Positions 4,063-47,900 are shown, counted from the first letter of the stretch. The stretch is 64,000 nt of DNA from Pseudomonas sp. (GCA_036675275.1 JAKFFG010000027.1:4113-68112); one strand, 5' to 3'. Numbers and translations: made by a program. Notes: generated from the letters alone by a model not told the origin.

Positions 4063-5295
4063 TCAGGAGTTATCAATAGATTCGGACGGATGTGCACCTG
4101 ATGCGGCGATTCTCGGAGGCTCGGTTGCCAATACCGGCCGAGGTGTGACCACATCGCCCGGCCGAATGCGTTGCAGGCCGCTGACAACGATGCGCTCTCC
4201 CGCTTTCAAGCCTGCTTCGACCACGCTCCAGCCCTTCCTGCTGGTTCCAAGATGAACCTCCCGATATTCAGTCTTGTTGCTCTCGCCCACAACCACGACG
4301 AAGCGCTTGTTCTGATCGGTGCCTATCGCCCTATCGTCGACCAGCACGGCCTCGTGCGGCGCGCCCCCGCCCAGCCGAATACGGGCGTAAAGACCCGGCA
4401 CCAAGGAACCATCAGGGTTATCGAAGACCGCGCGCACTCGTATGGTTCCCGATGATGTGTCCATCGTGTTGTCGACGGAGGCCAATGTTCCAGGACGAGG
4501 ATAGTTCTCCTCGTTGGCCAAACCCAGGTGTACGGGAACTGCGGCATCACCGGAGACGCGCGCCGGATTCACGAACTTCAGAAAGCTCTGCTCATCGACG
4601 TCGAACGAGGCATAAAGCCGGGACACCGAAACCAGGGTGGTCAAGGGCGTCGAGCCGGCGCCGGCCGCCACGACATTGCCCGGCGTCACTTCCGCGCGCG
4701 ACACCCGTCCTGAAATGGGAGCGACGATACGTGTGTGTTCGAGGTTCAATTGCGCCGATTCCAGCCTTGCCTTAGCCGCCTGCAGATCGGCAACGGCGCT
4801 GCGCGACGCATTGCGCTTCTCTTCATAGTCTCGCCGGGCAATGGCGTTGTTATCCAACAGCCGTTTCCCCCGGGCAAGATCCGACCCTGTATACGCGACC
4901 CGCGCTTGCGCTGAGACTACCTGGGCTTTGGCATGATCCACCGCCGCCCGGTACGGCCTGGGATCTATGGTGAACAGCACATCGCCCTTCTGAACCTGGC
5001 TTCCGTCCGTAAAATGAACCTGCGTCAACGTACCTGAGACCAAGGGACGGACAACGATCTCATCGACGGCCTCGAGCCGACCTGAAAAGTAATGCCAATC
5101 GGTAACGGTCTGACTATCGACCGTCGCAACGTCCACGGTAACCGCTGGCATAGCCGGAGCCGCCGTGGACTCCTGAGCCGATCCAGCATAAACGCGAAAA
5201 ACGGCGACACCCCCGATCAGAGCCGCGGCGGCAATGGCCAGCGCGGCGTATCGATTGCGTAGTAGAAACATGGTAGTCCTTGTGTTGCTGATCAT
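4063..5295 (-). CDS. RND efflux membrane fusion protein (AcrA/MexA, HlyD_D23 family)
   Basis: 410 aa with an N-terminal membrane anchor and coiled-coil/lipoyl/beta-barrel MFP-like sequence (e.g. VVRPLVSGTL, IVAPISGRVS). It lies immediately upstream of the RND permease. Confidence 0.9.
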   Translation of the reverse strand: MISNTRTTMFLLRNRYAALAIAAAALIGGVAVFRVYAGSAQESTAAPAMPAVTVDVATVDSQTVTDWHYFSGRLEAVDEIVVRPLVSGTLTQVHFTDGSQVQKGDVLFTIDPRPYRAAVDHAKAQVVSAQARVAYTGSDLARGKRLLDNNAIARRDYEEKRNASRSAVADLQAAKARLESAQLNLEHTRIVAPISGRVSRAEVTPGNVVAAGAGSTPLTTLVSVSRLYASFDVDEQSFLKFVNPARVSGDAAVPVHLGLANEENYPRPGTLASVDNTMDTSSGTIRVRAVFDNPDGSLVPGLYARIRLGGGAPHEAVLVDDRAIGTDQNKRFVVVVGESNKTEYREVHLGTSRKGWSVVEAGLKAGERIVVSGLQRIRPGDVVTPRPVLATEPPRIAASGAHPSESIDNS

Positions 5296-5505
5296 GCCGG
5301 AAGTTGAAAATGAGTCGTCGAATTCCTACATTTTTCAAGCCGGCATAGAAATTCTGGAAATGAGCGGGTATTATTTACTTTTCGCAGAGACAGATAAATA
5401 CGCGTTTTCTGCCTACACTATTCGTCAATTTCCAACAATGCAGCCCCGTGTTTGGGTCATGGACACTCACACTTGGCTGCGAACATCATTTCAAGGAAGA
5501 GCACG

Positions 5506-6522
5506 ATGGATCGCTTCCAGGCTATGCAGGTCTTCACACGGGTCGTGGACGCGAACAGCTTCACACTGGCCGCGGATATGCTCGGCCTGCCGCGGGCCAC
5601 CGTAACGACCACGATCCAGGGACTGGAACGCCTGCTGAAGGTGCGGTTGCTGAACCGCACCACCCGCCGGCTGAGCCTCACGCCCGATGGCGCGGCATAT
5701 TACGATCACTGTGTACGAATACTCGCCGACATAGAAGACGCGGAGGCGTCGTTTCACGACGTGACCCGAGGTCCGAAAGGCCGGCTGCGCATCGACACGC
5801 CGCCGTCCATCGGACGGCTGATACTGCTGCCCGCCTTATGCGAATTTCATGAGCGCTACCCCGACATTGAGCTGGCGATCGGAATGAGCGACAGGCCGGT
5901 CGACATGGTGCAGGAAGCCGTGGACTGCGTGATCAGGGTGGGCGAGCTGCAGGATTCAAGCATGGTCGCCAAACGGATAGGAACATTCGAAAGCATCACA
6001 TGCGCCGCGCCGTCATACCTGGAGCGCCACGGTGAACCGCAAACCATAGAAGAATTGAACGGCCACCGTGCCGTTCACTATTTTTCCGGGCGCAGCGGAA
6101 GAAATATGGACTGGAGCTTCACAGTGGATGGGCGAGTCACGGAAGTCGCCGTCCAGGGAGCCGTGTCGGTCAACGACGCGGAGGCTTATGTGACCTGCGG
6201 CTTGAAGGGATTTGGCATGATACAGCCGGCGCGATATATGGTTGCGGCCCACCTGGAATCGGGAGCGCTGCGGGAAATCCTGCCCGCATGGAAGCCTCAG
6301 CCCATGCCCATCTCGGTGGTCTACCTGCACAACCGTCATCTGTCGCCCAAGGTGCGGGTTTTCGTCGACTGGATAAGCGAACTGTTCCAACGCTGCCCCT
6401 TGCTGGGCGAGTGCGGGTTGGGCATGGCAAGCGCAGAAGAATGCCGGTTCGCAGGCCGGCATGCGTCCAATACCATACGGGAAATAATGGAACGCGAACA
6501 TGTGAAGGAAAGTATCTTCTGA
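5506..6522 (+). CDS. LysR-family transcriptional regulator, divergent from the efflux operon
   Basis: The ATG at 5506 is preceded by AAGGAAGAG. The N-terminus MDRFQAMQVFTRVVDANSFTLAADMLGLPRATVTTTIQGLE is a typical LysR wHTH, followed by a C-terminal substrate-binding domain. Confidence 0.9.
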   Translation: MDRFQAMQVFTRVVDANSFTLAADMLGLPRATVTTTIQGLERLLKVRLLNRTTRRLSLTPDGAAYYDHCVRILADIEDAEASFHDVTRGPKGRLRIDTPPSIGRLILLPALCEFHERYPDIELAIGMSDRPVDMVQEAVDCVIRVGELQDSSMVAKRIGTFESITCAAPSYLERHGEPQTIEELNGHRAVHYFSGRSGRNMDWSFTVDGRVTEVAVQGAVSVNDAEAYVTCGLKGFGMIQPARYMVAAHLESGALREILPAWKPQPMPISVVYLHNRHLSPKVRVFVDWISELFQRCPLLGECGLGMASAEECRFAGRHASNTIREIMEREHVKESIF

Positions 6523-6582
6523 CGGGCACAGCGATTGCTCCCATAGGCGAAAACAGCCCGCTGTGGCGCACTAGGAGCATTC

Positions 6583-7989
6583 ATGAACGTAGCGATCATC
6601 GGCACCGGCTATGTCGGCCTGGTTACCGGCGCATGCCTTGCCGAAGCAGGAAACAACGTCACTTGCATTGACAATAACGACGAGAAAATAGCCGGACTTC
6701 GCGCGGGCACCGTGCCGTTTCACGAACCCTTGCTCGACGCGGTCGTACTTCAGGCAAGCATGAAAGGAACGCTACAGTTCACAAGCAGATTGGCCGAAGG
6801 CACACTCCATGCCGAAATTATCTTCCTGGCGCTGGGGACTCCCGCCGGCATCGACGGTTATGCAAATACTGGGGCCTTGCTGCAATGCGCGCAGGATCTT
6901 GCAGCAGTCTTGCAGCACGATTGCCTTGTCGTCATCAAATCAACAGTCCCGCCTGGAACTTGTGAAGACATCCAGGCGCTTTTCGACACAACGCTCGTGC
7001 GCCGAACAGCGGACTTCCGGATCAAAGTCGCCTCCAATCCCGAATTTTTAGCCGAGGGTACCGCTGTAAGCGATTTCCGCAGGCCCGCGCGAATCGTGGT
7101 CGGCGCGTCGGACGAAGCTGACTCCGGGATACTCAGGCAACTCTATGCACCCTTCGATCCGGATGGCACCCGTCTGATTGAAATGGATCTTCGATCTGCG
7201 GAGTTCGCCAAGTATGCATGCAACGCGATGCTGGCGGCGCGAATTTCCATGATAAACGAACTGGCCAATATCGCAGGCCGTCTGGGCGCAGATATCGGAC
7301 CAGTATGCCAGGTGCTGAAGTCGGATCCGAGGATAGGGCCCCGTTATCTGGAACCTGGCGCCGGCTACGGTGGATCCTGCCTGCCGAAAGATTTGCATGC
7401 CCTCATTCGCATGGCCCGGGACAAGGGCGAACCCGCTCCCATGCTCACTAGTATTGATCAGGTGAATCGGCGCCAGGTAAAGCTCATCTTCAAAGCGATA
7501 GAGAAATACTTCTGGGGACGCTTCAAGGGCCGATGTGTTGCCATCTGGGGGCTCGCCTTCAAAGCGGGAACCGACGACATTCGGGAAGCGCCCAGTCTTG
7601 CGCTGATTCAAGGGCTTCTTGACGCCGGCGCCAAAGTGCGGGCCTACGATCCCATCGCCGAATCGGCCGTCGCGTCAACGTTCAAGCACCCCGACCTGGT
7701 CCTTGCAGCCAGCGCCGAACAAGCCTGCCTGGATGCCGACGTGCTCGTTGTGATGACGGAATGGGAAGAGTTCATCACGCCCGATTTCAAATGGCTGGCA
7801 TCCACGTTGCGCTCACCTGCCATTTTCGATGCGCGCAACCTTTACAACGATAAAGACTTGAAGTCTCTGGGTTTACGCCACTACCGGCCCGGACGGACAT
7901 TCCCCGCACAGACGACACCCAGGACTCTGTGGACACAAGCACCGCTGCGGAGGGACGATGCCGCGCCGGTCCGGCAACAGCATGGGTGA
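6583..7989 (+). CDS. ugd: UDP-glucose 6-dehydrogenase
   Basis: 468 aa with the Rossmann motif IIGTGYVGL and catalytic Cys context GGSCLPKD. It has the UDPG/GDP-mannose dehydrogenase family layout. Confidence 0.9.
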   Translation: MNVAIIGTGYVGLVTGACLAEAGNNVTCIDNNDEKIAGLRAGTVPFHEPLLDAVVLQASMKGTLQFTSRLAEGTLHAEIIFLALGTPAGIDGYANTGALLQCAQDLAAVLQHDCLVVIKSTVPPGTCEDIQALFDTTLVRRTADFRIKVASNPEFLAEGTAVSDFRRPARIVVGASDEADSGILRQLYAPFDPDGTRLIEMDLRSAEFAKYACNAMLAARISMINELANIAGRLGADIGPVCQVLKSDPRIGPRYLEPGAGYGGSCLPKDLHALIRMARDKGEPAPMLTSIDQVNRRQVKLIFKAIEKYFWGRFKGRCVAIWGLAFKAGTDDIREAPSLALIQGLLDAGAKVRAYDPIAESAVASTFKHPDLVLAASAEQACLDADVLVVMTEWEEFITPDFKWLASTLRSPAIFDARNLYNDKDLKSLGLRHYRPGRTFPAQTTPRTLWTQAPLRRDDAAPVRQQHG

Positions 7990-8071
7990 CAAAACCGCAG
8001 AATAGAAAGCATCGCCTGTTCGACAACGATATTGCAAAAGCCGGCGGGCCATATTGAAGGAGCCGGCGACA

Positions 8072-10822
8072 TCAGCGTACTGGCTTATCCGTAGACGCCC
8101 CGATGCGCGTCACTGCCAGGATAGTGGCCAGAAGTTCTCTCGGGTCCACCGGCTTGCCCACATGAACCTGGAATCCGGCCAGCAATGCGCGCAAGCGGTC
8201 TTCCCTTTCACTGTAGCCGGACAGCGCAATGGCGGGCAGGCGTTCCGCCAACGATAAACCGCGTTGCGCCTCGAGTTTGCGGATATCGGTAATTACCTGA
8301 TATCCGTCCGGTTCGCCCAGCGATATATCGCATACGAGTACATCCGGCCATTGGGGCCGCGCGCTTTCGTGCAATCGCGATAAGAGTGACCCTCCGGAGT
8401 CGAATACTTCCACTTGCGCGCCGTGGTCCTGAAGAACGGCGGCCAGCAATTCCCTGGCTTCTTGCTGGTCGTCCGCAACGAAAATGCGAACGCTTTGCAG
8501 GACGTGGTCCAGCTCTTGCGCAACCGGCGTCGCCGGCGCCAGCGATGCGACAGCCCGTAGCGGCAGCCGGATGGAGAATGTCATTCCGGAACCGTCGCTT
8601 GCAGGCCTCACGTCGAAGCTGCCGCCCATCTGCTCCAGCATCGCGGTCACCGCCAACGGATCCAGCAAATGCGACAATCTCACCGGCTGCGATTCGTCCA
8701 CAGCGGCCGGAGCAGTATCCGACGAAGTCAGGCGTCCGTCGGTCACTGAAATGAGCGCCGCCCCTTCCGAGCGTTCCAGCCGCAACTCAAGGCGTCCGCC
8801 GGACGGCGTGAAAGCGATCGCGTTATCCAGCACATCGCATACGAGTTGCTGCAATGCGCTGGGATCACCCGTGACACGCAGGGTGTCCGTGCTGATCAGC
8901 GGATACAGCACTATTCCCTGGGACTCGCTGGCCGGACGCATCGCATCCAGCACACCGGCCACCAGAGCCACGAGATTCACCGGTTGAGCGCTCAGCCGGG
9001 ATCCGGATTCATCCAGTTCGTTTTGCTGCCGTTGCAAATGCCACATCTGGGCATACAAGCCTTTGGCACGCAGCAGATCCGCGTGCGAACCACGCTCGAC
9101 AATGCAGCCGTGATCCATGACCAGTATCGTGTCGGCATTCACTATCGTGGACAGTCTATGGGCGATGATCAATGTGCTTCTGCCCTGCGCAAGACGGTCG
9201 AGTTCCTCCTGAATAGCACGCTCTGTGCGGGTATCCAGCGCCGACGTTGCCTCGTCGAAGATAAGCAGGGGCGGATTCTTCAGTACCGCGCGGGCAATGG
9301 CAATGCGCTGCCGTTCGCCCCCGGAGAGCTTCACCCCGCGTTCGCCCACCATGGTTTCATATTGGGCCGGCAAGCTCTGGATCAATTCGTGAATCCGGGC
9401 GGCCTTGGCCGCCTCAATAACATCGGCGGGCGTGGCGCCAACCCGGCCATAGGCGATGTTGTATGCAATCGTATTGTTGAACAGCAGAGAGTCCTGCGGC
9501 ACCACCCCTATCATGGACCGCAGGCTTTTCTGGCTGACCGAGCGTACGTCCTGGCCATCCACTTCGATACTCCCGCCATCAACGTCATAAAAATGCAGCA
9601 GCAGGCGAGCCAGCGTGGACTTGCCCGAACCGCTACCCCCCACCACTGCAACGGTCGCCCCCGGCTCGATGCGGAAATCCACCCCGTGCAGTATCTGGCG
9701 TCCCGGCTCGTAGGAGAAGTCGACCTTGGCAAACTCGACGGCGCCACCGCTGAAGCGCAATGCAGGCAGAACTTCCGCAGGATCGGATTCAGGCGGATAA
9801 CGCAAAAGCTCGGACATCCGTTCGGCGTTGATCAGCGCCTCGCGCGCCTGCCGAAAGCTGAGACCCAGTGTATTCAGCGGCAGGCAGACCTGTATTACAT
9901 AGGCGTTGACCAGTATAAGATCGCCGACCGCCATGTTTCCGCTGACCACTTCCTGGCCGGCCAACAACATTATCGCGGCAACGCCAAACGCAATGATCCC
10001 GCTTTGCCCCACGTGCAGAACCGACAGGGCTCGCTGGTTATCCACCCCTATGCCTATCCATTTCTTCATGATGTCGCGCAAGCGTTGCGACTCGACTTGG
10101 TCGCTGGCATAGAACTTCACCGTTTCATAATTGAGCAGACTATCGACCAGATGGCCATTGGCCGCGGAGTCCAGTTCATTCAGCTGCCGCTGGTACAGCG
10201 TACGCCTTTCAGTGAAGACGACGGTGAATATCGCATAGATGACAAAAGTGGCCAGCACGATGGCCGCGAATCCGAAGTGGTAAGCCATCATCATAATGAC
10301 CACGACGGAGACGATCTCGATCAGGGTGGGCAATACCGTAAACAGTGCAGTACCCAATAAGAAGCCGATGCCGGCTGTGCCCCTTTCCACATCGCGCGAT
10401 AGAACGCCTGTCTGCCGGCCGCCAAGGAACTTCACGCCCAGGCTATGCAGATGATCGAACATGCGCACGGTAAAGTCCGCAACTGCCGTTTGGGTAACGC
10501 GGGCAAAGACCAGGTCGCGCAGTTCCGTGAACAAGCCGGACGAGAAGCGCAGCAAGGCATAGCCTATCAGGAGAAAAACCGGCAACGTCAGTGTTGCGGA
10601 GCTTGAATCCAATGTATCTACGATGCGCTTGAGGGCGACCGGCACCAGGACCGCCAACAGCTTTGCCGCAATGAGCAAGACCAGGGCCGCAGCCGCGCGG
10701 CGCCTGAATCGCCATAAAACCTGGCCTACGGTCTTGAAAATTTCACGGCGCGCAAACACCGATGTCCCCGCATCACCGGTTCCGGAGCGAGTCGAATGCG
10801 GATCGCTGGCCGAGCCTTCCAT
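8072..10822 (-). CDS. ATM1/HMT1-type ABC exporter (TMD+NBD) fused to a HATPase_c-like domain and a CheY-like receiver domain
   Basis: Single uninterrupted ORF. Transporter motifs are Walker A GGSGSGKST, signature LSGGERQR, Walker B LLIFDEATSALD and IIAHRLS. It continues into an N-box-like LVCDVLDNAIAFTPSGG ...GMTFSIRLPL, then a receiver (VADDQQ, VLVCDISLGEPDG, ALSGY, HVGKP). The ATG at 10822 with GAGGA 5 nt upstream is preferred over the TTG at 10834. Confidence 0.85.
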   Translation of the reverse strand: MEGSASDPHSTRSGTGDAGTSVFARREIFKTVGQVLWRFRRRAAAALVLLIAAKLLAVLVPVALKRIVDTLDSSSATLTLPVFLLIGYALLRFSSGLFTELRDLVFARVTQTAVADFTVRMFDHLHSLGVKFLGGRQTGVLSRDVERGTAGIGFLLGTALFTVLPTLIEIVSVVVIMMMAYHFGFAAIVLATFVIYAIFTVVFTERRTLYQRQLNELDSAANGHLVDSLLNYETVKFYASDQVESQRLRDIMKKWIGIGVDNQRALSVLHVGQSGIIAFGVAAIMLLAGQEVVSGNMAVGDLILVNAYVIQVCLPLNTLGLSFRQAREALINAERMSELLRYPPESDPAEVLPALRFSGGAVEFAKVDFSYEPGRQILHGVDFRIEPGATVAVVGGSGSGKSTLARLLLHFYDVDGGSIEVDGQDVRSVSQKSLRSMIGVVPQDSLLFNNTIAYNIAYGRVGATPADVIEAAKAARIHELIQSLPAQYETMVGERGVKLSGGERQRIAIARAVLKNPPLLIFDEATSALDTRTERAIQEELDRLAQGRSTLIIAHRLSTIVNADTILVMDHGCIVERGSHADLLRAKGLYAQMWHLQRQQNELDESGSRLSAQPVNLVALVAGVLDAMRPASESQGIVLYPLISTDTLRVTGDPSALQQLVCDVLDNAIAFTPSGGRLELRLERSEGAALISVTDGRLTSSDTAPAAVDESQPVRLSHLLDPLAVTAMLEQMGGSFDVRPASDGSGMTFSIRLPLRAVASLAPATPVAQELDHVLQSVRIFVADDQQEARELLAAVLQDHGAQVEVFDSGGSLLSRLHESARPQWPDVLVCDISLGEPDGYQVITDIRKLEAQRGLSLAERLPAIALSGYSEREDRLRALLAGFQVHVGKPVDPRELLATILAVTRIGASTDKPVR

Positions 10823-10840
10823 AATAGTCCTCAAGCAATT

Positions 10841-11740
10841 TTATGGCGGAGTCATATCGGCGCCATTCTCTGATTCCTTTTCAGCCGAGACGCGCGAGCC
10901 GTATCGGCGCGCATACGCCCAGGTGAATTCAGCACCCAGGAGAAACACCTGGGCGGCGTAGTACACCCAGATCAATACCATTACCAAGGAGCCCGCCGCC
11001 GTGAGCGAGGAGATCGTGGAGCTCTTGCCGACGTAAAGCGCGATGAGAGCCTTGCCCACCTCAAACAGAACAGCAGTCACGAAGGCGCCCACCCATACAT
11101 CGCGCCAGTCTATCTTCGCCTGCGGCATGAACTTATAGATCATCGCGAACAGTACGGTGGCAATCCCCAGCGAAACGACAGCATTGATGACCTGTAGCAA
11201 AAGCTCCCATCCCGGGAACAAGCCGGTGGACCACTGGCCCAATGCCGCCAGGGCGGCGCTCAGGATCAAGGACACGAGCAACAGGAACGCCAGACCCAGA
11301 ACGAGGCCGAAGGAAAGCAGGCGGGCGCGCAACGTCGCCAATATGCCGGTCTTTGCCGTCGCCGGTACCCTCCATATACGATCCAGGGCACTTTGCAACT
11401 CTGCAAATACCGTGGTCGAACCGACAACCAATACGATTACGCTGAAGAGCGTAGCGGTAACGCCCTGCGCGGGTTTGTCGGCGCTCTTGATCAGATTCTG
11501 CACTCCCGATGCACTTTCGGTGCCGACCATGCCTCCAATCTGACGTATGATTTCTCCACGCACCGCCTCTTCGCCCCACACAAAGCCGGCGACAGCGATA
11601 ACGATGATCAGGAGGGGTGCGATGGAAAAAGTCGTGTAGAAAGCAATGGCTGCACCCATGCTGGAAGCGCGGTCATCCTGCCAGGCCGCCACCGACTCTT
11701 TGCCCAATTGAAAAAATTCCTTTACACGCATCCCGGGCAT
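10841..11740 (-). CDS. YihY/BrkB (virulence factor BrkB / former RNase BN) family inner-membrane protein
   Basis: 299 aa. The sequence WQDDRASSMGAAIAFYTTFSIAPLLI plus about 6 TM segments is characteristic of YihY. Its stop lies 18 nt before the ABC fusion start. Confidence 0.85.
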   Translation of the reverse strand: MPGMRVKEFFQLGKESVAAWQDDRASSMGAAIAFYTTFSIAPLLIIVIAVAGFVWGEEAVRGEIIRQIGGMVGTESASGVQNLIKSADKPAQGVTATLFSVIVLVVGSTTVFAELQSALDRIWRVPATAKTGILATLRARLLSFGLVLGLAFLLLVSLILSAALAALGQWSTGLFPGWELLLQVINAVVSLGIATVLFAMIYKFMPQAKIDWRDVWVGAFVTAVLFEVGKALIALYVGKSSTISSLTAAGSLVMVLIWVYYAAQVFLLGAEFTWAYARRYGSRVSAEKESENGADMTPP

Positions 11741-11755
11741 CCTTTCAACGCGCCA

Positions 11756-12265
11756 TCACGACTTATCCAGATCGGGCGCGTCCCGTTGTGCCAAAGCGCG
11801 CCCCTTGGCGACGGCCTTAAGGCAATGGGCAATGGTTGCGGCAAACGCTTCGTCATACCAGGGGTTGGCACCGCTGACGCCGACCACAATCCCCTCAATG
11901 GCCACGCCGCCCCAGATCCCGCAGTCGCCTGCCTGCAATAGATGAGGCAGCACATGGCGCACAGTATGCCCGTCACGGCCGGTGCGCCAGCATACCTTCG
12001 CCTTGTCACGCGCGAAGCGGGCATAGTCGGCGTCCCATTTGTCCTGATCGCCGATGGCATGTTCATAAAGAATTGCGTCGTCGAACTCGCTGACCGAAGG
12101 ATCCAGACCCGGATCCATGATGACGATGTAAAGAAAACCGCTCTCCCCGACAGTTGCGTTATGTACACCCTGCTCGAGCATCGGAAGAGCCAGATTGACG
12201 GCCTGCCTGGCCGCATCCTGATCTGCAAAGTAACTGCCCGAAGCCCGCTGTCGCCCTGAATTCAT
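11756..12265 (-). CDS. GlcG/HbpS-like (DUF336) putative heme/cofactor-binding protein
   Basis: The ATG at 12265 is preceded by GGGAGG. The C-terminal GGVAIEGIVVGVSGANPWYDEAFAATIA resembles the GlcG motif GG.P....G.IGAVGVSG. No signal peptide is seen. Its stop lies 15 nt before yihY. Confidence 0.55.
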   Translation of the reverse strand: MNSGRQRASGSYFADQDAARQAVNLALPMLEQGVHNATVGESGFLYIVIMDPGLDPSVSEFDDAILYEHAIGDQDKWDADYARFARDKAKVCWRTGRDGHTVRHVLPHLLQAGDCGIWGGVAIEGIVVGVSGANPWYDEAFAATIAHCLKAVAKGRALAQRDAPDLDKS

Positions 12266-12387
12266 CAATTTGCCTCCCATTCGCCTTACGGTTTGGCGCT
12301 GGAAGGAGCACAGCAAGCGGCATGCCGCCGACAATTTCGTCGACGGAAAGCTACCCAAATTCACCCTTATCGTGTTCAATATGCTCC

Positions 12388-13677
12388 ATGTCTTATCACA
12401 CAGCTCCCTCGGATCAACAAGATAACGCCGAATCGCCTTATGCCTGGGCGCGTCTGATCGTGTCGCTCCTGCTTATGACCATAGGCGGATCCGGCATGTA
12501 TTCCGTTACTGTCGTGCTGCCTCAAATACAGGCCGAATTCGGCGTGAGCCGCGCCGACGCCTCGCTGCCGTATACGCTGACGATGGTGGGATTTGGCCTG
12601 GGCGGCATCTTGATGGGACGGCTATCGGACCGGTTCGGGGTCATTATTCCAATAGTCGTCGGCACCCTGGGACTGAGCCTGGGCTTTATCGTGGCCGGTC
12701 TTTCGTCCAGCCTCTGGCAATTCGTGCTGGTACAAGGCCTGTTCATCGGGCTGCTGGGCACGGCGGCAACCTTTGCTCCTTTGGTTGCCGATACCTCGCA
12801 GTGGTTTACCAAACGCCGGGGAATCGCCATAGCCATATGCATGAGCGGCAACTATCTGGCGGGCGCTGTCTGGCCTCCCATAATGCAGTACTTCATCGAT
12901 ACGTCGGGATGGCGCTATACCTATGTCGGTATTGGGGTGTTTTGCCTGCTGTCCATGCTGCCGCTGGCCCTGGTGTATCGCAAGCGGGCCCCTTCCACCA
13001 GCGTCGTGATCAATACAAGCTCGAACAAGAATGCCCGATTCGCGATGGAAGCGGCTGCCTCTGATCCGAACCGGCCTCTCGGATTCAGCCCGACTGCCCT
13101 GCAAGGGCTGTTGTGCATTGCTGGGGTGGCCTGCTGTGTTGCCATGGCAATGCCGCAAGTGCATATCGTGGCCTATTGCGGCGACCTGGGCTTTGGCGCT
13201 GCACGCGGGGCCGAGATGCTGGCCCTGATGCTGGGTCTGGGCATCGTCAGCCGCCTTGCTTCGGGATGGCTGTCCGATCACATCGGCGGATTGCGCACCC
13301 TGCTGGTCGGCTCCCTTCTGCAAGGTGTTGCGCTCGTGATGTTCCTGAACAATAACGGGCTGGTTTCACTCTACATTATCTCGGCGCTTTTCGGCTTGTT
13401 TCAGGGCGGCATCGTGCCGTCGTACGCCCTGATCGTGCGCGAATATTTCACGCCCAAAGAAGCAGGCGCGCGCGTAGGCACTGTGCTCATGGCGACGCTG
13501 TTTGGAATGGCACTGGGCGGCTGGATGTCAGGTGCAATTTATGATCTCACCGGCTCTTATCAAGCAGCTTTCGTCAACGGCATAGTGTGGAATCTGGTGA
13601 ATCTGAGCATCGTCGGTTTCCTGCTATACCGGGCAAAGCGCGGCCTGGGAGCCGCCGGCACCCCGATTCGAGCTTAG
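12388..13677 (+). CDS. MFS transporter (oxalate/formate antiporter-like)
   Basis: 12-TM MFS-like sequence including GGILMGRLSDRFG (the loop 2-3 motif). The start is uncertain: 12388 ATG or the ORF-track ATG at 12322. Confidence 0.8.
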   Translation: MSYHTAPSDQQDNAESPYAWARLIVSLLLMTIGGSGMYSVTVVLPQIQAEFGVSRADASLPYTLTMVGFGLGGILMGRLSDRFGVIIPIVVGTLGLSLGFIVAGLSSSLWQFVLVQGLFIGLLGTAATFAPLVADTSQWFTKRRGIAIAICMSGNYLAGAVWPPIMQYFIDTSGWRYTYVGIGVFCLLSMLPLALVYRKRAPSTSVVINTSSNKNARFAMEAAASDPNRPLGFSPTALQGLLCIAGVACCVAMAMPQVHIVAYCGDLGFGAARGAEMLALMLGLGIVSRLASGWLSDHIGGLRTLLVGSLLQGVALVMFLNNNGLVSLYIISALFGLFQGGIVPSYALIVREYFTPKEAGARVGTVLMATLFGMALGGWMSGAIYDLTGSYQAAFVNGIVWNLVNLSIVGFLLYRAKRGLGAAGTPIRA

Positions 13678-13721: not shown

Positions 13722-14630
13722 TCAGCTCTCAAAAGATAGGGCCATGAAATCCACAAAAGCGCGCACGCGCGCGGAATGCTGGCGGCCTTGCAGGTAGGTT
13801 GCGTAGATATCGGCGTCGGGCGTTTGATAATCGACAAGCACTTGCACCAATCGTCCACTGGTCAAGTAGCGGGAAATATCCCATTCAGCCCGCATCAATA
13901 TTCCATGACCGTCCAGCGCCCAATTGACGGCGGCTTCTCCGTCGTTGGTCCTGAGCGTCCCATGCACCCGCACGGTCTCGGTGTTGCGCGACGTCCCGGC
14001 TCCCGTCGTCAACCGCCAGACTCCGTATGCCTCATCGCCCTGCTCTATGCGTATGCAATTGTGCCTGGAAAGATCGGCAGGAATGCGCGGCGCACCGTGC
14101 TGCGCCAAGTAAGCGGGTGAAGCGCACAACAGGCGGCGGTTTGCCGTCAGGCGCCGGGCAATGATACGCGCCTCGGGCGGCTCTCCGAAGCGCACGCCCA
14201 CATCGAAGGCGTCATCACTGAACGCCGGAGGATCGACCGACAGCTGAAGCTGTACTTCGACTTCGGGATACGCGTGCATGAAGCGCGAAATGAGCGGCGC
14301 CACGTAGCTGCGGCCGAAGCCCGGCGTCGCATTGACGCGCAACAGCCCCCGGGGCGCAATCCGGGATCCAGCCAGCGATTGCTCCATGTCGTCTATCTCG
14401 GCCAGTATGCGCCGCGCATGGAGAAGGTACAGCTCGCCCTCCGGAGTGAGGTGCATGCGGCGGGTGGTTCGTGTAACAAGGGTGACGCCCAACCGCGCTT
14501 CCATCTGTGCCAGGCGCTTACTGACCGCGGGCGTGGAGATTCCGAGTTTGCGCGCCGCCGCACTCAAGGCCCCGCATGAAGCCAGCATCGAGAAAAAAGC
14601 CAGCTCGGACGGATGGGCATTTGAATTCAT
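13722..14630 (-). CDS. LysR-family transcriptional regulator
   Basis: 302 aa with wHTH FFSMLASCGALSAAARKLGISTPAVSKRLAQME. It is divergent from the dmlA-like gene. Confidence 0.9.
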   Translation of the reverse strand: MNSNAHPSELAFFSMLASCGALSAAARKLGISTPAVSKRLAQMEARLGVTLVTRTTRRMHLTPEGELYLLHARRILAEIDDMEQSLAGSRIAPRGLLRVNATPGFGRSYVAPLISRFMHAYPEVEVQLQLSVDPPAFSDDAFDVGVRFGEPPEARIIARRLTANRRLLCASPAYLAQHGAPRIPADLSRHNCIRIEQGDEAYGVWRLTTGAGTSRNTETVRVHGTLRTNDGEAAVNWALDGHGILMRAEWDISRYLTSGRLVQVLVDYQTPDADIYATYLQGRQHSARVRAFVDFMALSFES

Positions 14631-14752: not shown

Positions 14753-15829
14753 ATGAAGACATATCGTATCGCCACAATTCCAGGCGACGGCATAGGAAAG
14801 GAAGTCATTCCGGCCGGCCAACAGCTGCTTGAAACGCTGGCCAATACTGGCACATCCTTTTCTTTCGAATTCGAAAATTTCGATTGGGGCGGTGACTACT
14901 ACCGCCAACATGGCGTGATGATGCCGGACGACGGCCTGGACGCCTTGCGCAACAAGGATGCCATCTTATTTGGTTCTGCCGGCGACCCGCATATTCCCGA
15001 CCACATCACGCTTTGGGGACTGCGCCTGAAAATATGTCAGGGATTCGATCAATACGCCAATGTCAGGCCCACGCGCATTCTGCCCGGGATAGACGCGCCT
15101 TTGAAGCGCTGCGCGACCGGTGACCTTGATTGGGTCATCGTGCGCGAGAACTCTGAAGGAGAGTATTCGGGTGTGGGCGGTCGGGTCCACCAGGGCCAGC
15201 CTATCGAAGCCGCCACTGATGTATCCATCATGACGCGGGCCGGCGTAGAGCGGATCATGCGTTTCGCCTTCAAGCTCGCGCAGTCGCGCCCACGCAAGCT
15301 TCTTACCGTCATCACCAAATCAAACGCCCAGCGCCATGCCATGGTTATGTGGGACGAAATTGCCCGGCAAGTGTCGGCTGAATTTCCGGATGTCACCTGG
15401 GACAAAGAACTGGTCGATGCCGCAACAGCGCGCATGGTGAACCGTCCGGCAACGCTGGACACAATAGTAGCCACCAATCTGCACGCAGACATTCTGAGCG
15501 ACCTGGCTGCAGCACTGGCGGGCAGCCTGGGCATCGCGCCCACAGGGAACATCGATCCCGAACGCCGTTACCCGTCCATGTTCGAACCCATCCATGGTTC
15601 GGCGTTCGACATCATGGGCAAGGGCCTGGCCAACCCGGTAGGCACTTTCTGGTCCGTTGTCATGCTTCTGGAGCACCTGGGCGAAACCAGCGCAGCGCGG
15701 CGCACCATGAGCGCCATCGAACGCATTACATCAGACTCCAGCCTGCATACCGGAGATCTAGGGGGAACGGCCGGCACCGCCGACGTTACACGAGCCATGT
15801 GTCAACAGATCGCTAGCGGGGCGAATTAA
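14753..15829 (+). CDS. dmlA: Tartrate dehydrogenase/decarboxylase / D-malate dehydrogenase (isocitrate/isopropylmalate dehydrogenase family)
   Basis: 358 aa. MKTYRIATIPGDGIGKEV..., YANVRPTR, VRENSEGEYSG and NLHADILSDLAAALAGSLGIAP are close to the E. coli DmlA/TtuC pattern as I recall it. Confidence 0.85.
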   Translation: MKTYRIATIPGDGIGKEVIPAGQQLLETLANTGTSFSFEFENFDWGGDYYRQHGVMMPDDGLDALRNKDAILFGSAGDPHIPDHITLWGLRLKICQGFDQYANVRPTRILPGIDAPLKRCATGDLDWVIVRENSEGEYSGVGGRVHQGQPIEAATDVSIMTRAGVERIMRFAFKLAQSRPRKLLTVITKSNAQRHAMVMWDEIARQVSAEFPDVTWDKELVDAATARMVNRPATLDTIVATNLHADILSDLAAALAGSLGIAPTGNIDPERRYPSMFEPIHGSAFDIMGKGLANPVGTFWSVVMLLEHLGETSAARRTMSAIERITSDSSLHTGDLGGTAGTADVTRAMCQQIASGAN

Positions 15830-15858: not shown

Positions 15859-16866
15859 ATGAGAAGCAGACGATTTACAACTGCGGGCAAGCACGCCATC
15901 AAGTACACAATGATGGCTGCAACAGTGCTGGCGACAGCAATTCTAGGCCCCGGCGCATCGGCCCAAGGCTGGCCGACCAAGCCAATAAGCCTGATCGTCC
16001 CGTTTGCCGCGGGCGGCACCACCGATGTTCTTGCCCGCGCTTTGGGCGACAAGCTGTCGATTTCGTTGGGGCAACCGGTAATCGTGGAGAACAAGCCCGG
16101 CGCGGGTGCGACGCTAGGCGCCGATATCGTCGCACGCGCCAAGCCGGACGGCTACACCTTGCTGATGGGTGCCGTTCATCACACCATAGCCACCAGCGTT
16201 TATAAGAAGCTTCCTTACGACTTTCAAAAAAGCTTCGAGCCAGTCACCACGGTGGCCCTGGTACCCAATGTGCTGGTGATCAATGCCGCAAACACCAATG
16301 CCAGTACACCTGAGGAGCTCATTGCACTGGCCAAAAAAGCCGCCCCGAGCATGGCATTCGGCTCAAACGGGTATGGAACCCTGCAGCATCTCATCGGCGC
16401 TCAATTCGCCTCGCAAAACGGGATAGAGCTGCTGCACGTGCCTTATAAAGGCAGCGGCCCATTGACGACCGACCTGCTCGGCGGCCAGGTCGCCATGTCT
16501 TTCGATACGGTTACTCCCGTACTACCCCATGTACAAAGCGGCAAGCTGCGGGCACTGGGCGTTACCACAGCCAAGCGATCCTCGGCCCTGCCGGACACCC
16601 CTACCCTGAACGAGGCCGGCCTGAAGGACTTTGATCTGGGGACCTGGTTCGGTGTACTGGCGCCCGCCGGCACGCCGGTGAATGTTCTCGACAAGCTGAA
16701 TAAAGAGATGGTCAAGGTGATCCATTCGCCTGACTTCCGTGACCGCATGAGCAAGATAGGAGCCGAAGTAATAGGCAATACGCGCGACGAAATGGCCAAG
16801 CAGATAGATGACGACACCAAGCGCTTTGCCACCATCATCAAAAAAGCCAATATCACCGTCAACTGA
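15859..16866 (+). CDS. Bug-family (TctC-like) tripartite tricarboxylate transporter periplasmic solute receptor
   Basis: 335 aa with a signal peptide, then WPTKPISLIVPFAAGGTTDVLAR and VENKPGAGAT, which are hallmarks of Bordetella uptake gene family proteins. Confidence 0.9.
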   Translation: MRSRRFTTAGKHAIKYTMMAATVLATAILGPGASAQGWPTKPISLIVPFAAGGTTDVLARALGDKLSISLGQPVIVENKPGAGATLGADIVARAKPDGYTLLMGAVHHTIATSVYKKLPYDFQKSFEPVTTVALVPNVLVINAANTNASTPEELIALAKKAAPSMAFGSNGYGTLQHLIGAQFASQNGIELLHVPYKGSGPLTTDLLGGQVAMSFDTVTPVLPHVQSGKLRALGVTTAKRSSALPDTPTLNEAGLKDFDLGTWFGVLAPAGTPVNVLDKLNKEMVKVIHSPDFRDRMSKIGAEVIGNTRDEMAKQIDDDTKRFATIIKKANITVN

Positions 16867-44072: not shown

Positions 44073-44107
44073 GACAATATAGTACCGTTTCGGTACTATA
44101 TTGTCAA
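44073..44107 (-). promoter_or_regulatory. Near-consensus sigma70 promoter overlapped by a perfect 15-3-15 palindrome (candidate Rrf2 operator) upstream of rrf2-suf
   Basis: The minus strand reads TTGACA-aatatagtaccgaaacgg-TACTAT (17-nt spacer). The palindrome GACAATATAGTACCG-TTT-CGGTACTATATTGTC at 44073-44105 spans from -35 to -10. The -35 overlaps the stop codon of the upstream ABC gene. Confidence 0.6.
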
Positions 44108-45921
44108 ACTGCGGAATCTTGCTCTGCCTGGCTTGGCCGGTCCGGATCCTGGCCACTTTGCTGCAAGTTCCACATCTGGGCATACCGACCGGCCTGGGCA
44201 ATCAAATCCCGGTGGGAACCGCGCTCAAGAACCCTTCCGTGATCCAGAACAATGATTTCGTCCGCCTCCACGATCGTGGAAAGGCGATGAGCGATGATCA
44301 GCGTGGTGCGGTCCTTGGCCACCTGGCGCAGCTCGTCCTGAATCACCCTTTCGGTGCGTGTGTCGAGCGCGCTGGTCGCCTCGTCCAGTATCAGGATGGG
44401 CGGATTCTTCAGGACCGTGCGCGCGATGGCAACGCGCTGCTTTTCACCACCCGACAATTTCAGGCCCCGTTCACCGACTTGAGTCTGATAGGCGTCCGGC
44501 AGGTTCATGACAAAGTCGTGAATGCTCGCGGCCTTGGCTGCCTGGACAATTTCCTGCTCTGACGCGTCCGGATTTCCATACGCGATGTTGTACAGGATGC
44601 TGTCGTTGAACAGGACGGTATCTTGCGGAACGATTCCGATATGCCGCCGCAGGCTGGCCTGGGTCAGGTCTCGAATGTCGACGCCATTAATCGTGATCGA
44701 GCCGGAATTGACATCGTAGAAACGGAACAGCAATCTGGACAGGGTCGATTTCCCGGCACCGGAAGATCCCACTACGGCCAATGTCTTGCCCGCGGGTATC
44801 GAGAAGCTCACATCAAACAGAATCTGGCGGTTTGATTCATAGCCGAATTCCACATTATTGAAGCGGATTGCCGCCTGCGATGTACACAATTCCGTGGCAG
44901 CCGGACGGTCGGCCACTTCCTGGCCCTGCTCCATCAGGCCGAACATGCGCTCCATATCAGCCAGCGCATGCTTTATCTCGCGATATACAAAGCCCAGGAA
45001 ATTGAGCGGCGCATACAACTGCGTGAGATAGGCCGAAACCAGTACGACATCGCCTACCGACATAGTCTTGCTCACCACTCCCTGCGCCGATAGCCAAAGC
45101 AGCAAGGTAACGCCGGTCGTAATGATGACGCCCTGCCCCATGTTCAGGAAGTTGAGCGACACCTGGTTCTTGACGGCCGAATCCACCCATTTCCCCAGAT
45201 TGCTGTCGTAGCGATCCAGCTCGTAACCCTCGTTGCCGAAGTATTTCACCGTCTCGTAATTGATCAGGGCATCGATGGCTTTGCTGTTGGCCTTGCTGTC
45301 CAGGTCGTTCATGCTGCGGCGATAGACCATCCGCTTCTCGGTCACCACCAGGGTAAACGCAATATACGCGGCGATCGTGCCTAGGGTCACGACAGCAAAG
45401 CGCCAATCGTAGCGCCACAGCAAAATGGCAGTCACCATGCCGATTTCCAGCAGGGTCGGCAAGATATTGAACACCATGAAATTGAGCAGAAAACCTATGC
45501 CCTTGGTGCCGCGTTCGATATCCCTGCTCAAGCCTCCCGTCTGCCGCTGCATATGAAAGCGCAGCGACAAGGCAAACAGATGTTTGAACAATTGGGCCGC
45601 AATACGGCGTATGGACCCTTGCGTGACACGCGCAAACAGCGCATCGCGCAGCTCTCCGAAGACGCTGGACGCCAGGCGCGCAAAGCCATACCCCAGCAAC
45701 GCGGCCACCGGAAGCACGAGCAAAGTGCCCGGCAAGCTGAGTTTGTCGACGATGTCTTTCAAGAACAGAGGCAGGATTACGCTGGCGACCTTGGCAGCCA
45801 CCAGACAGGCCAAGGCCGCAGCCACGCGCCGCTTGAACTGCCATACATAAGGCAGCAGCGACCTTATCGTCTTTATATCGTCCCGCCCCCCGGGCGCAGA
45901 TCCACGGTGACTCATTTTCAT
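44104..45921 (-). CDS. ATM1/HMT1-type ABC exporter (fused TMD-NBD half transporter)
   Basis: About 605 aa with Walker A GSSGAGKST, LSGGEKQRVAIAR, ILILDEATSALD and IIAHRLS. It is a paralog of residues ~36-600 of the fusion at 8072-10822. Its start ATG at 45921 forms an ATGA overlap with the upstream acyltransferase stop. Confidence 0.9.
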   Translation of the reverse strand: MKMSHRGSAPGGRDDIKTIRSLLPYVWQFKRRVAAALACLVAAKVASVILPLFLKDIVDKLSLPGTLLVLPVAALLGYGFARLASSVFGELRDALFARVTQGSIRRIAAQLFKHLFALSLRFHMQRQTGGLSRDIERGTKGIGFLLNFMVFNILPTLLEIGMVTAILLWRYDWRFAVVTLGTIAAYIAFTLVVTEKRMVYRRSMNDLDSKANSKAIDALINYETVKYFGNEGYELDRYDSNLGKWVDSAVKNQVSLNFLNMGQGVIITTGVTLLLWLSAQGVVSKTMSVGDVVLVSAYLTQLYAPLNFLGFVYREIKHALADMERMFGLMEQGQEVADRPAATELCTSQAAIRFNNVEFGYESNRQILFDVSFSIPAGKTLAVVGSSGAGKSTLSRLLFRFYDVNSGSITINGVDIRDLTQASLRRHIGIVPQDTVLFNDSILYNIAYGNPDASEQEIVQAAKAASIHDFVMNLPDAYQTQVGERGLKLSGGEKQRVAIARTVLKNPPILILDEATSALDTRTERVIQDELRQVAKDRTTLIIAHRLSTIVEADEIIVLDHGRVLERGSHRDLIAQAGRYAQMWNLQQSGQDPDRPSQAEQDSAV

Positions 45922-47900
45922 GCGGCGGGTTCCTCCAGGAACTTGATGATCTGCTCCATCCACTTCTGCGACACTTCGCGCGAACCGTCGATTGAAAGAT
46001 GCGACGTATCGGAATACCTGACGTTCTGACCGCCCATGGCCGAACAAACGCCATTCGCGCACAGGGCATCATAGGGATCCAGGAAAAGCACACGTGGATT
46101 TGCGCTGAACGCGCTGGCCAGTTGTTGGTTCAACTCATATCCCAGCCCCTGTACTGGCGGCAGTTCCAAAGACCGCAGACAAATCATGGGCACATAATCG
46201 GGACGCTCGAGACAGGCACTGGCACTGCCGACCGCGCGTATGCCGGGCTGATTGCCTATCACAATGAGCTTGCGCCGCGGATTGTCGGCAACGAGATCCT
46301 GGACATTCGCAACAAGGAAGCGGCCATAGTCGGCGGAACTGGAGAATTCCAGTCGGGTGCCGTCGGGGCGCGCCAGGAGCCGCCGGTACCCCGTCCAGCT
46401 CATGGCATAGACCAAGGGAAGATCATTACCCTTCAACAAGGCCTGCAGTCGCCCGGTGGTATCAAGGCAATCCTGGCGCGGCCGGCCGGCAAGCAGCCGC
46501 GTAACATCGCGGCCCAGTATGCAGCCGTGCCGGAACACGCCCTGCATGCTGACTCCTTTCTTTGCCAGCCAATAGTCGAAACCGGCAGCGTACTGCAAGG
46601 CAAAACTGTCGCCTGCGAAAATGGCCAATGGCTTGCCGGTCGCCGCATCCCCCAGCACCGCATCAAGCGCGTAGCCTTCGCCGCCGAAAAGACCGGCCTG
46701 CATGACCATTCGGTCGGCTACCCGGTCTCTATACTGGTCGTTGACCCTGAACGGCAAACCATGTTGGTAATAAACGTAAGCGCTTGGCGCGAGCACCAGG
46801 GCAACAAGCGCCGCACAGGACACAGCCTTGACGCCGCTCCAGCTTGCAAGATCGACTTTCCGGTACCGGCGCTCCACCCAGCGATACATGGGATAGGCCA
46901 CCACAAATGGCACAGCGAACAATAACGCCTTGTCCCAGAATTGCAGAGGACGATAGACATGATATTTGTAGAAAACGATGATCGGCCAATGCACCAGATA
47001 CAGCGAATATGAGACCAGGCCAATAAACACGGCAACACGGTTACGCAACAGAACGCCTAGATAGCGCGCACGTCCCGCATAGATGCACAGTGCCGCGCCA
47101 ACCACGGGGACCAAGGCGTTCACCCCCGGAAACACGGTATTGCTGTCAAACGCCAGTACGCTATAGACCAGTAACAGCAGACCGGTGGCCAAAAGGCCCT
47201 CCTGCACTCTGTTTGCCGGCATGATACGGCGCTCCAGCCAGGGCAGCAAACCGCCCGCGGCAAACTCGAACATCCGGAACGGCATAAGGAAATAGTTTGC
47301 GGACGGATCGAGCACCGTAAACCATTGGGATGCCGCAAGGGAAACGACGCCCGCCAACAGTATGCCCCAGGGCAGCCGTGCTGGCCGCCATCGCCAAACC
47401 CCATAAATAATTAATGGCCAAATCAGATAAAACTGCTGTTCGACCCCCAACGACCATGTATGGAGCAGCGGATTCAATTCCGACGACGTATCGAAATAGC
47501 CCGCCACCTGCCAGAAAACCACATTGGACGCCGAGAAGAAGCTGGCAACGGTGGAGGCAGCCAGCGTCCGATACTGGGTCGGATCGAAAAACACAAAACC
47601 CGCAACCATGACCAGCAGCAAGGTCGCGATAAGCGCCGGATACAAGCGTACCACCCGCCTGGCCATGAACGGCAGCAGGCGGAAGGTTCCACGCTCGCAA
47701 TCCGAATGGATGATCTGCGTAATGAGATAGCCGGAGATCACGAAGAAAACGTCCACCCCGACAAAGCCTCCCGCAAATGGGGCGAAACCGGCATGGAAAA
47801 GCAGCACGCTTATGACAGCGAAAGAACGAAGGCCGTCGACTTCGGGACGATAGGACTTGGACATTGCCGTCGCCACGGCAGAGGGAGGACTACCAGACAT
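45918..47900 (-). CDS. Acyltransferase-3 (OafA/YrhL-like) membrane O-acyltransferase with C-terminal SGNH domain
   Basis: 660 aa. YRPEVDGLRSFAVISVLLFHAG is the AT3 N-terminal motif, followed by about 10 TM segments and a C-terminal GDS motif (IFAGDSFA). Confidence 0.85.
   Translation of the reverse strand: MSGSPPSAVATAMSKSYRPEVDGLRSFAVISVLLFHAGFAPFAGGFVGVDVFFVISGYLITQIIHSDCERGTFRLLPFMARRVVRLYPALIATLLLVMVAGFVFFDPTQYRTLAASTVASFFSASNVVFWQVAGYFDTSSELNPLLHTWSLGVEQQFYLIWPLIIYGVWRWRPARLPWGILLAGVVSLAASQWFTVLDPSANYFLMPFRMFEFAAGGLLPWLERRIMPANRVQEGLLATGLLLLVYSVLAFDSNTVFPGVNALVPVVGAALCIYAGRARYLGVLLRNRVAVFIGLVSYSLYLVHWPIIVFYKYHVYRPLQFWDKALLFAVPFVVAYPMYRWVERRYRKVDLASWSGVKAVSCAALVALVLAPSAYVYYQHGLPFRVNDQYRDRVADRMVMQAGLFGGEGYALDAVLGDAATGKPLAIFAGDSFALQYAAGFDYWLAKKGVSMQGVFRHGCILGRDVTRLLAGRPRQDCLDTTGRLQALLKGNDLPLVYAMSWTGYRRLLARPDGTRLEFSSSADYGRFLVANVQDLVADNPRRKLIVIGNQPGIRAVGSASACLERPDYVPMICLRSLELPPVQGLGYELNQQLASAFSANPRVLFLDPYDALCANGVCSAMGGQNVRYSDTSHLSIDGSREVSQKWMEQIIKFLEEPAA

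Follow-up and report, generated by a model that had tools for sequence, protein, structure and literature searches.

Coupling of ABC (ATP-binding cassette) transporters to phosphorylation-based signalling is known from systems of the BceAB-BceRS type and from the R domain of CFTR. The kinase of Bce-type systems is a separate partner, while control of CFTR is exerted by phosphorylation of Ser/Thr residues. A conceptually similar arrangement, but with a bacterial receiver covalently attached to the exporter, is encoded at positions 8,072–12,265 of a 64,000-nt stretch deposited as Pseudomonas sp. (GCA_036675275.1 JAKFFG010000027.1:4113-68112), which in its full length is called here the window. 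Three minus-strand genes are located there, with predicted products corresponding to a small protein with a DUF336-like fold, a YihY/BrkB membrane protein and an ABC half-transporter fused to a kinase-like and a receiver (REC) domain. Comparison of related genomes indicates that the functional unit at this locus is a conserved two-gene module composed of the small protein and the ABC fusion. We interpret it as a receiver-gated exporter module belonging to a sigma-54-controlled stress and glycoconjugate programme, and give to this interpretation, which comes from sequence comparison, a credence that falls somewhat short of even.

Several described systems resemble parts of this locus. The fusion shares the type IV exporter fold and half-transporter layout with Atm1, AtmA, NaAtm1 and ABCB7, and retains R207, Q273 and R324 of their substrate pocket. 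It differs from this group by Q211 and H270 at the places of the glutathione-binding arginine and asparagine, by a tail of ~310 residues consisting of a CA-like (HATPase_c-like) domain and REC, and by its context, which is glycan synthesis rather than Fe-S or metal homeostasis. Its scores with Atm proteins are no better than with ABCB1 and ABCB4, unlike those of a canonical paralog found in the same window. With MsbA/PglK-type flippases of lipid-linked glycans it can be compared as the only exporter encoded together with a carbamoyltransferase and a cluster rich in glycosyltransferases (GT) of families GT9, GT4 and GT2, but it falls below the cutoff for MsbA and by its sequence is an Atm1 paralog. 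This combination resembles the msbA-adjacent cluster for the lipopolysaccharide core of Pseudomonas. The small protein has a fold, a small stand-alone form and a gene position beside the presumed partner in common with HbpS of the HbpS-SenS-SenR system of Streptomyces, EfgA, the C-terminal domain of PduO, GlcG and NahX. However, it is sub-threshold in Pfam, forms a separate family, is predicted to be cytoplasmic and has no functional histidine kinase adjoining. Finally, the order of CA-like and REC domains is that of hybrid histidine kinases and pseudo-kinases (ShkA, RetS, DivL), but the tail of the fusion is devoid of a sensor, DHp, acceptor His and G2 box, does not conserve the N-box Asn and is attached to a transporter. 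Literature searches for an ABC-receiver fusion, for DUF336 proteins with ABC transporters, for the family of the small protein and for a GT9/carbamoyltransferase cluster yielded general papers on Atm1 and sigma-54 only and no description of such a system, and in databases the products bear generic names (“ATP-binding cassette domain-containing protein”, “hypothetical protein”).

Conservation of the gene pair and layout of the operon

To compare gene neighbourhoods, 80 genome loci anchored on the small protein were fetched, and the ABC gene was counted as its pair if it was found on the same strand within 8 kb. An ABC ortholog was paired with the small gene in 64 of them. The other 16 loci comprise 12 truncated contigs, two partial matches and two cases with full flanks but no ABC gene. 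On the contrary, yihY is placed between the small and ABC genes in only 7 of the 80 loci, and all of these belong to the Pollutimonas/Orrella/Pusillimonas clade. Thus, the pair is conserved and the trio is not, and the idea of a three-gene unit kept across Burkholderiales had to be given up after the synteny check, which confined the trio to one narrow clade. The order small–yihY–ABC was registered in six loci and one truncated locus of the Pollutimonas clade, and the direct order small–ABC in eight loci (Pusillimonas caeni, Candidimonas, Eoetvoesiella and Parapusillimonas). The reverse order, ABC–small, occurs in 19 loci (Pigmentiphaga, the Burkholderia cepacia complex and a metagenome-assembled genome (MAG) of Rhodocyclales), while in 31 loci of Oxalobacteraceae an ABC gene without the CA-REC tail is followed by GT2, in some cases a radical SAM gene, GT1 and the small gene.

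These data bear on an alternative according to which the three products are not coupled at all, but represent co-transcribed members of a general stress regulon acting singly, so that their order is an accident of rearrangement. The rarity of yihY at these loci fits this explanation, as do the unrelated genes (hemerythrin, topoisomerase IB, DUF421) inserted into the same operon of sister genomes and the mosaic composition of the surrounding island, assembled from BON, PRC, MscS, KGG, HSP20 and Ku genes. However, the small and ABC genes stay adjacent or close to each other through at least four gene orders in four families, which would hardly be expected if their linkage were not under selection, and as a general account of the locus we consider the absence of coupling unlikely. 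For yihY, to which the objection from linkage does not apply, it is probably correct, and this gene is probably a clade-specific insertion or passenger in the module.

Coordinates of the genes, protein domains and promoter-like elements are collected in Table 1. Each of the three genes is preceded by its own ribosome-binding site, and the gaps between them comprise 15 nt (11741–11755) and 18 nt (10823–10840). Scanning of these two short gaps revealed neither promoter-like nor terminator-like sites, while the search for an intrinsic terminator 3′ of the fusion gene gave only a weak hairpin (z-score −0.67). The second ATG codon of yihY (11731) has a better spacing from the ribosome-binding site than the first one, and all alignments with YihY homologs start at residue 4. 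The true start of this gene is therefore probably at 11731, and the first gap probably comprises 24 nt. For the fusion gene an alternative start is the TTG codon at 10834. On these sequence features the three genes are assigned to one operon. Thus, except for the probable width of the first gap, the layout proposed by the sequence-only reading, with three open reading frames (ORFs) of one strand separated by 15 and 18 nt, was borne out. Its assumption that they are likely co-transcribed from the divergent region also gained support, as a sigma-54 −24/−12 candidate kept across genera is located there. The product of the second gene had been recognized as a YihY/BrkB membrane protein, and it passes the cutoffs of both Pfam (PF03631 BrkB, E 2e-48, 165.6 bits with a cutoff of 33.7) and NCBIfam (TIGR00765, 85 bits with a cutoff of 73.15). 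At the amino-acid level proteins of the window are 95–98% identical to those of a MAG contig (L001) and 86–90% identical to those of Pollutimonas subterranea, which by sequence places its lineage in the Pollutimonas/“Orrella” group of Alcaligenaceae.

Table 1. Positions of the operon, its predicted elements and neighbouring genes in the window. Residue numbers of the fusion domains are from Pfam and refer to the 920-aa ORF starting from TTG.
Feature	Position	Strand	Remarks
Small gene	11756-12265	-	169-aa product; ATG with GGGAGG upstream
YihY/BrkB gene	10841-11740	-	ORF call
Fusion gene	8072-10822	-	916-aa product; ATG with GAGGA upstream
ABC transmembrane domain, PF00664 (ABC_membrane)	residues 50-316; 9887-10687	-	Pfam
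ABC nucleotide-binding domain, PF00005 (ABC_tran)	residues 382-531; 9242-9691	-	Pfam
HATPase_c-like (CA-like) domain	residues 656-760; 8555-8869	-	Pfam, 33.2 bits (cutoff 26.4)
Receiver (REC), PF00072 (Response_reg)	residues 784-905; 8120-8485	-	Pfam, 64.6 bits
Candidate sigma-54 −24/−12 element GGCATGCCGCTTGCT	12312-12326	-	61 nt 5′ of the small gene ATG
Second sigma-54-type element GGCACAGCGATTGCT	6525-6539	+	58 nt 5′ of the UDP-glucose 6-dehydrogenase gene
UDP-glucose 6-dehydrogenase (UGDH) gene	6583-7989	+	all three UDPG_MGDP_dh domains; convergent neighbour
Canonical Atm1/AtmA-type ABC exporter gene	44104-46062	-	607 bits to Arabidopsis Atm3, clearly above P-glycoproteins
MFS transporter gene	12322-13677	+	
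LysR gene	13722-14630	-	
Iso_dh-family dehydrogenase gene	14753-15829	+	
TctC/Bug receptor gene	15859-16866	+	
Second LysR gene	5452-6522	+	
RND adaptor gene	4063-5295	-	

The fused exporter and its small partner

The ABC::HATPase_c::REC architecture is common to more than 100 homolog clusters from Pollutimonas, Bordetella, Achromobacter, Pigmentiphaga, Burkholderia and Azoarcus, and the fusion is therefore not an artefact of assembly. The domain order initially read from the sequence as ABC, histidine kinase-like and REC agrees with both Pfam and these homologs. Among proteins with solved structures the best relatives of the fusion are Atm3, NaAtm1, ABCB7 and ABCB6, with ABCB1 and ABCB4 scoring equally high. 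In this genome the role of the true AtmA ortholog probably belongs to the canonical exporter encoded in the same window, which is probably also the paralog that the fusion core has diverged from. Since this paralog scores best with Atm proteins and is 51% identical to the ABC core of the fusion, the latter can be considered a diverged Atm1 paralog, and its earlier assignment to ATM1-type exporters holds. Alignment of the fusion transmembrane domain with NaAtm1 is nearly gap-free, this domain is strongly conserved, and none of the ATPase motifs (Walker A, signature, Walker B, H-loop) is disrupted. The best NCBIfam match is the MsbA model TIGR02203, but the score of 393 bits is below its cutoff of 602, and the fusion was rejected as an MsbA equivalog. 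An ORF of 882 codons 5′ of the Noviherbaspirillum ABC gene was dismissed as spurious; the genes called there are on the other strand.

The glutathione-binding pocket of NaAtm1 includes R206, R210, N269 and R323 (PMC6424863). Their counterparts in the fusion were mapped via HMMER alignment to NaAtm1, and their conservation was counted over 122 homologs. The set R, R, N, R of Atm1 corresponds here to R207, Q211, H270 and R324, so that two of the four residues are altered. Both substitutions are almost invariable (Q211 in 121 and H270 in 117 homologs) and are present in the unfused ortholog of Noviherbaspirillum as well, while the canonical paralog of the window has all four glutathione-pocket residues. 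One can assume that the substrate pocket of the fusion has been remodelled away from glutathione binding.

The tail of the fusion (residues 596–916) was modelled with a pLDDT of 88 and has the fold of a CA domain followed by REC. As a whole it is structurally matched best by ShkA, while DivL and RetS are among the best matches for the CA part and the D1 receiver of GacS is the best one for REC (TM 0.88). A search for DHp/HisKA in the fusion gave neither a HisKA match in Pfam nor a DHp hairpin in the model, where a single 11-residue helix passes directly into the CA fold, and no histidine is present in residues 596–650 between the nucleotide-binding and CA-like domains. The N-box Asn was found in only 55 of the 122 homologs, LDP takes the place of the G2 box, and approximately three quarters of the fusion homologs have no HATPase_c match in Pfam. 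With neither DHp nor a phospho-acceptor His the tail cannot autophosphorylate in cis. By its residues the receiver looks phosphorylatable: across the same homologs D832 is invariant, while D784, D785, S/T868 and K890 are kept in 118, 116, 121 and 117 of them, respectively.

For the first gene the sequence-only reading proposed a DUF336 product, and here fold and sequence gave different answers. The Pfam model PF03928 (HbpS-like/DUF336, GlcG) scored the small protein with 12.6 bits (E 0.14) against a cutoff of 25, only one of 69 diverse family members scanned with it reached E 0.005, and profile searches of PDB with close (A1) and distant (A3) homologs returned no DUF336 chain and no meaningful matches. 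However, the AF2 model of the protein (pLDDT 91) was matched by Foldseek against PDB exclusively with DUF336 structures at ranks 1–14 (NahX, ORFY, EfgA, DESPIG_02683 and PduOC; probability 0.99–1.0, TM 0.46–0.64), the next match having a probability of 0.13. Thus, the DUF336/GlcG-type assignment is retained for the predicted fold and not for the sequence score. The family counts 832 clusters at 50% identity and has no Pfam model. Across Burkholderiales orthologs are 50–62% identical (58% in Achromobacter xylosoxidans and 50% in Bordetella bronchiseptica). Residues conserved specifically in this subfamily are GESGF, W77, D80, Y81, K88, W93, H100, W118 and W136-D138-E139. The N-terminus is hydrophilic and variable and contains no signal peptide, from which a cytoplasmic location is predicted.

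These properties are relevant for the redox, heme or metal sensing-and-export unit suggested earlier by analogy with HbpS-SenS. In this case the small DUF336-like protein would bind heme, cobalamin or a redox ligand and signal to the kinase-like/REC module, while the Atm1-type pump would export glutathione-linked metal, sulfur or tetrapyrrole species. The fold family indeed includes heme binders (PduOC with heme in 5cx7 and DESPIG_02683, to which HbpS may be added by extension), the ABC part is a paralog of Atm1, hemerythrin genes recur at the loci of sister genomes and in the cluster of Oxalobacteraceae, and the surroundings contain stress genes. However, PF03928 is unmatched by the small protein and by 68 of the 69 family members, and the protein has no signal peptide, while HbpS works extracellularly. 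The absence of DHp and a phospho-acceptor His means that no phosphoryl group is made in cis. Pocket residues R210 and N269 are replaced family-wide, while the true Atm1 paralog in the window keeps both. In addition, the small gene persists beside ABC orthologs without the CA-REC tail, which makes its product independent of this tail, and conservation in the neighbourhood concerns glycosyltransferase and stress genes rather than genes for heme, iron or metals. The idea of such a unit is weakened, therefore, by the sub-threshold DUF336 score, the lack of a kinase core, the changed glutathione pocket and the glycan surroundings. The analogy with HbpS-SenS breaks down in both topology and components, as there is no signal peptide, no DHp/HisKA and no acceptor His, and the ATP-binding motifs are degenerate. 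An exporter module is more likely than an HbpS-SenS-type sensor of heme or metal, and the complete scheme with a glutathione-linked cargo appears quite improbable.

Sigma-54 motif, glycan cluster and the proposed programme

The cell exterior is an established theme of sigma-54 control (PMC3162934). The general consensus of −24/−12 elements is GG-N10-GC (TGGCAC-N5-TTGCW), and for counting we used exact matches to the strict pattern GGCAYN5TTGCT. Two of them were found in 64 kb, with 0.49 expected, and both are intergenic, correctly oriented and located 58–61 nt before a start codon, one of the small gene and the other of UGDH. In 14 loci from several genera the element is present 42–117 nt 5′ of the small gene despite diverged flanks, and an equivalent element precedes UGDH in L017, L018, L038, L039 and L131. 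Elsewhere the same element stands before the BON-GT4 operon, the rpoN paralog, the PIG-L operon and the MscS, KGG and hemerythrin genes. At the loci of Oxalobacteraceae, whose ABC protein also has no fused tail, the element was not found. Thus, at the sequence level there are a GG-N10-GC element, a suitable distance and conservation at orthologous positions, and the operon is most likely driven by this putative sigma-54 promoter. The UGDH gene is no more than 2.5 kb away from the ABC fusion in most Alcaligenaceae loci, though its orientation varies, and it probably belongs to the same regulon.

Gene calls with Pfam labels and a tblastn survey place the pair inside a glycan cluster in most other Burkholderiales, among them Achromobacter (A. 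xylosoxidans included), Bordetella (B. bronchiseptica included), Pigmentiphaga, the B. cepacia complex and Oxalobacteraceae. This cluster of roughly 10–14 genes for glycoconjugate synthesis has the order PIG-L, GT2, [small, ABC], BON, GT4, SDR, GmhB-like HAD, GT9, carbamoyltransferase, GT2, GT9, GT1 and epimerase, where both GT9 enzymes are of the heptosyltransferase family. It encodes a paralog of rpoN and two sigma-54 enhancer-binding proteins, and stress genes (BON, PRC, MscS, DUF421, KGG, HSP20, hemerythrin and Ku) lie on its flanks. Among the genes called in the glycan clusters there was no second exporter and no Wzx, Wzy or initiating phosphoglycosyltransferase. None of the cluster's glycosyltransferase genes is located within the 64-kb window. 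Pollutimonas sp. M17 (L130, CP107548), whose chromosome is complete, has the module at ~2.0 Mb and the glycan cluster at ~3.55 Mb (3.54–3.56). The order of the module there is DUF4142, small, yihY, hemerythrin, topoisomerase IB, ABC fusion, DUF421 and UGDH, otherwise syntenic with the window. Judging from these coordinates, relocation has put 1.5 Mb between the module and the glycan cluster in the lineage of the window, and the two retain the same promoter type. Attempts to identify the island with the low-oxygen-activated (lxa) locus of B. cenocepacia failed because its gene list did not match. Hopanoid (hpnI/J/K) and mycothiol/bacillithiol-like readings of the PIG-L, GT and radical-SAM genes were discarded, because glycosyltransferases are too numerous for them and the radical-SAM protein is of the wrong type.

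In M17 and in B. bronchiseptica (L083) the rpoN-like gene and the two genes for sigma-54 activators flank the glycan cluster. One of these activators has a receiver domain and the other does not, and no gene for a cognate histidine kinase adjoins them. On the flanks of this cluster M17 additionally has GT5 glycogen-synthase-like and GlgE-like genes. In the B. cepacia complex (L060–L070) genes for a PAS-HisKA-HATPase-REC hybrid kinase and a BON protein were found directly 5′ of the ABC fusion (~1.6–3.6 kb, minus strand), and the BON gene is preceded by sigma-54-type elements GGCACGCGAYTTGCA.

The presence of a REC-type activator in the cluster without an adjoining kinase raises the possibility that the fusion is mainly a signalling device. 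Its receiver would compete with, or relay to, the REC-type sigma-54 activator, acting as a phosphate sink or flux sensor, so that transporter load feeds back on transcription. This would be compatible with the hybrid kinase adjoining the fusion in Burkholderia, with the joint presence of the sigma-54 motif and the fused tail in Alcaligenaceae and the B. cepacia complex and their joint absence from Oxalobacteraceae, with the likeness of REC to receivers of hybrid kinases such as GacS D1, and with that of the CA-like domain to DivL and RetS, which signal by protein contacts. All this support is, however, purely correlative, neither an Hpt domain nor a cognate kinase is conserved with the module, and intact ATPase motifs together with the strongly conserved transmembrane domain argue for real transport. 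We therefore estimate the probability that signalling is the main task of the fusion as low.

For a receiver-gated exporter the following sequence of events can be proposed. The ABC dimer would translocate the product of the cluster, or its lipid-linked or soluble intermediate, over the inner membrane. D832 of the receiver would be phosphorylated by a separate kinase or a small phosphodonor, and the hybrid kinase of Burkholderia is a candidate for this role. Phosphorylation of D832 may gate or tune the ATPase or transport activity, the degenerate CA-like domain serving as a linker or docking surface rather than as a kinase, while the small protein may bind a ligand or intermediate and cooperate with the transporter core.

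Several observations weigh against the exporter module in this form. The CA-like domain of the window protein retains the N-box Asn (N667) and passes the HATPase_c cutoff (Table 1), which makes residual ATP binding possible. The loose sigma-54 consensus with two mismatches occurs in the window at chance frequency, so that the promoter assignment depends on the strict pattern and on its being conserved. In metagenomes, the neighbourhoods of distant relatives from the small-protein family show no recurrent ABC or glycosyltransferase gene, and the linkage is thus specific to the Burkholderiales subfamily. Even within this order, Verticiella sediminum (L057) and Burkholderia sp. 22313 (L069) have the small gene and the glycan cluster, but an ABC ortholog is missing from the 8 kb to each side. 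In the lineage of the window itself the module is not beside the glycan cluster, and their connection is made by synteny in other genera and by the common promoter motif. Finally, the GT9 enzymes could act on a target that needs no export.

A more complete picture may be drawn, in which the exporter is gated directly by two-component phosphorylation via the fused receiver, with a pseudo-kinase adaptor and a new ligand-binding partner of DUF336 fold, and performs the export step of an undescribed sigma-54-dependent envelope glycoconjugate programme common to Burkholderiales, including B. bronchiseptica, A. xylosoxidans and the B. cepacia complex. Taken with all these details it is possible but rather doubtful. 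If the receiver truly controls the pump, two-component signalling and ABC transport would be linked directly, in a way for which no published description was found. Among opportunistic pathogens, Achromobacter, Bordetella and the B. cepacia complex possess the module and the glycan cluster, annotated there only under generic names. A candidate sigma-54 regulon is also outlined, comprising the exporter, UDP-glucuronate supply, a heptose/carbamoyl glycan pathway and dormancy-type stress proteins, and the small protein represents a large new family (~830 clusters at the identity level given above).

Genes on both sides of the operon (MFS, two LysR, Iso_dh, TctC/Bug and RND adaptor, Table 1) are syntenic with Pollutimonas sp. 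M17 and unlinked to the module in other genera. In the related loci L001, L002, L005 and L131 a DUF421/YetF gene, absent from the corresponding interval of the window (7990–8071), separates the ABC fusion from UGDH. Genes for hemerythrin and topoisomerase IB, which the window does not contain at this place, are inserted between yihY and the ABC fusion in L005, L006 and L131, where they have a sigma-54 element of their own.

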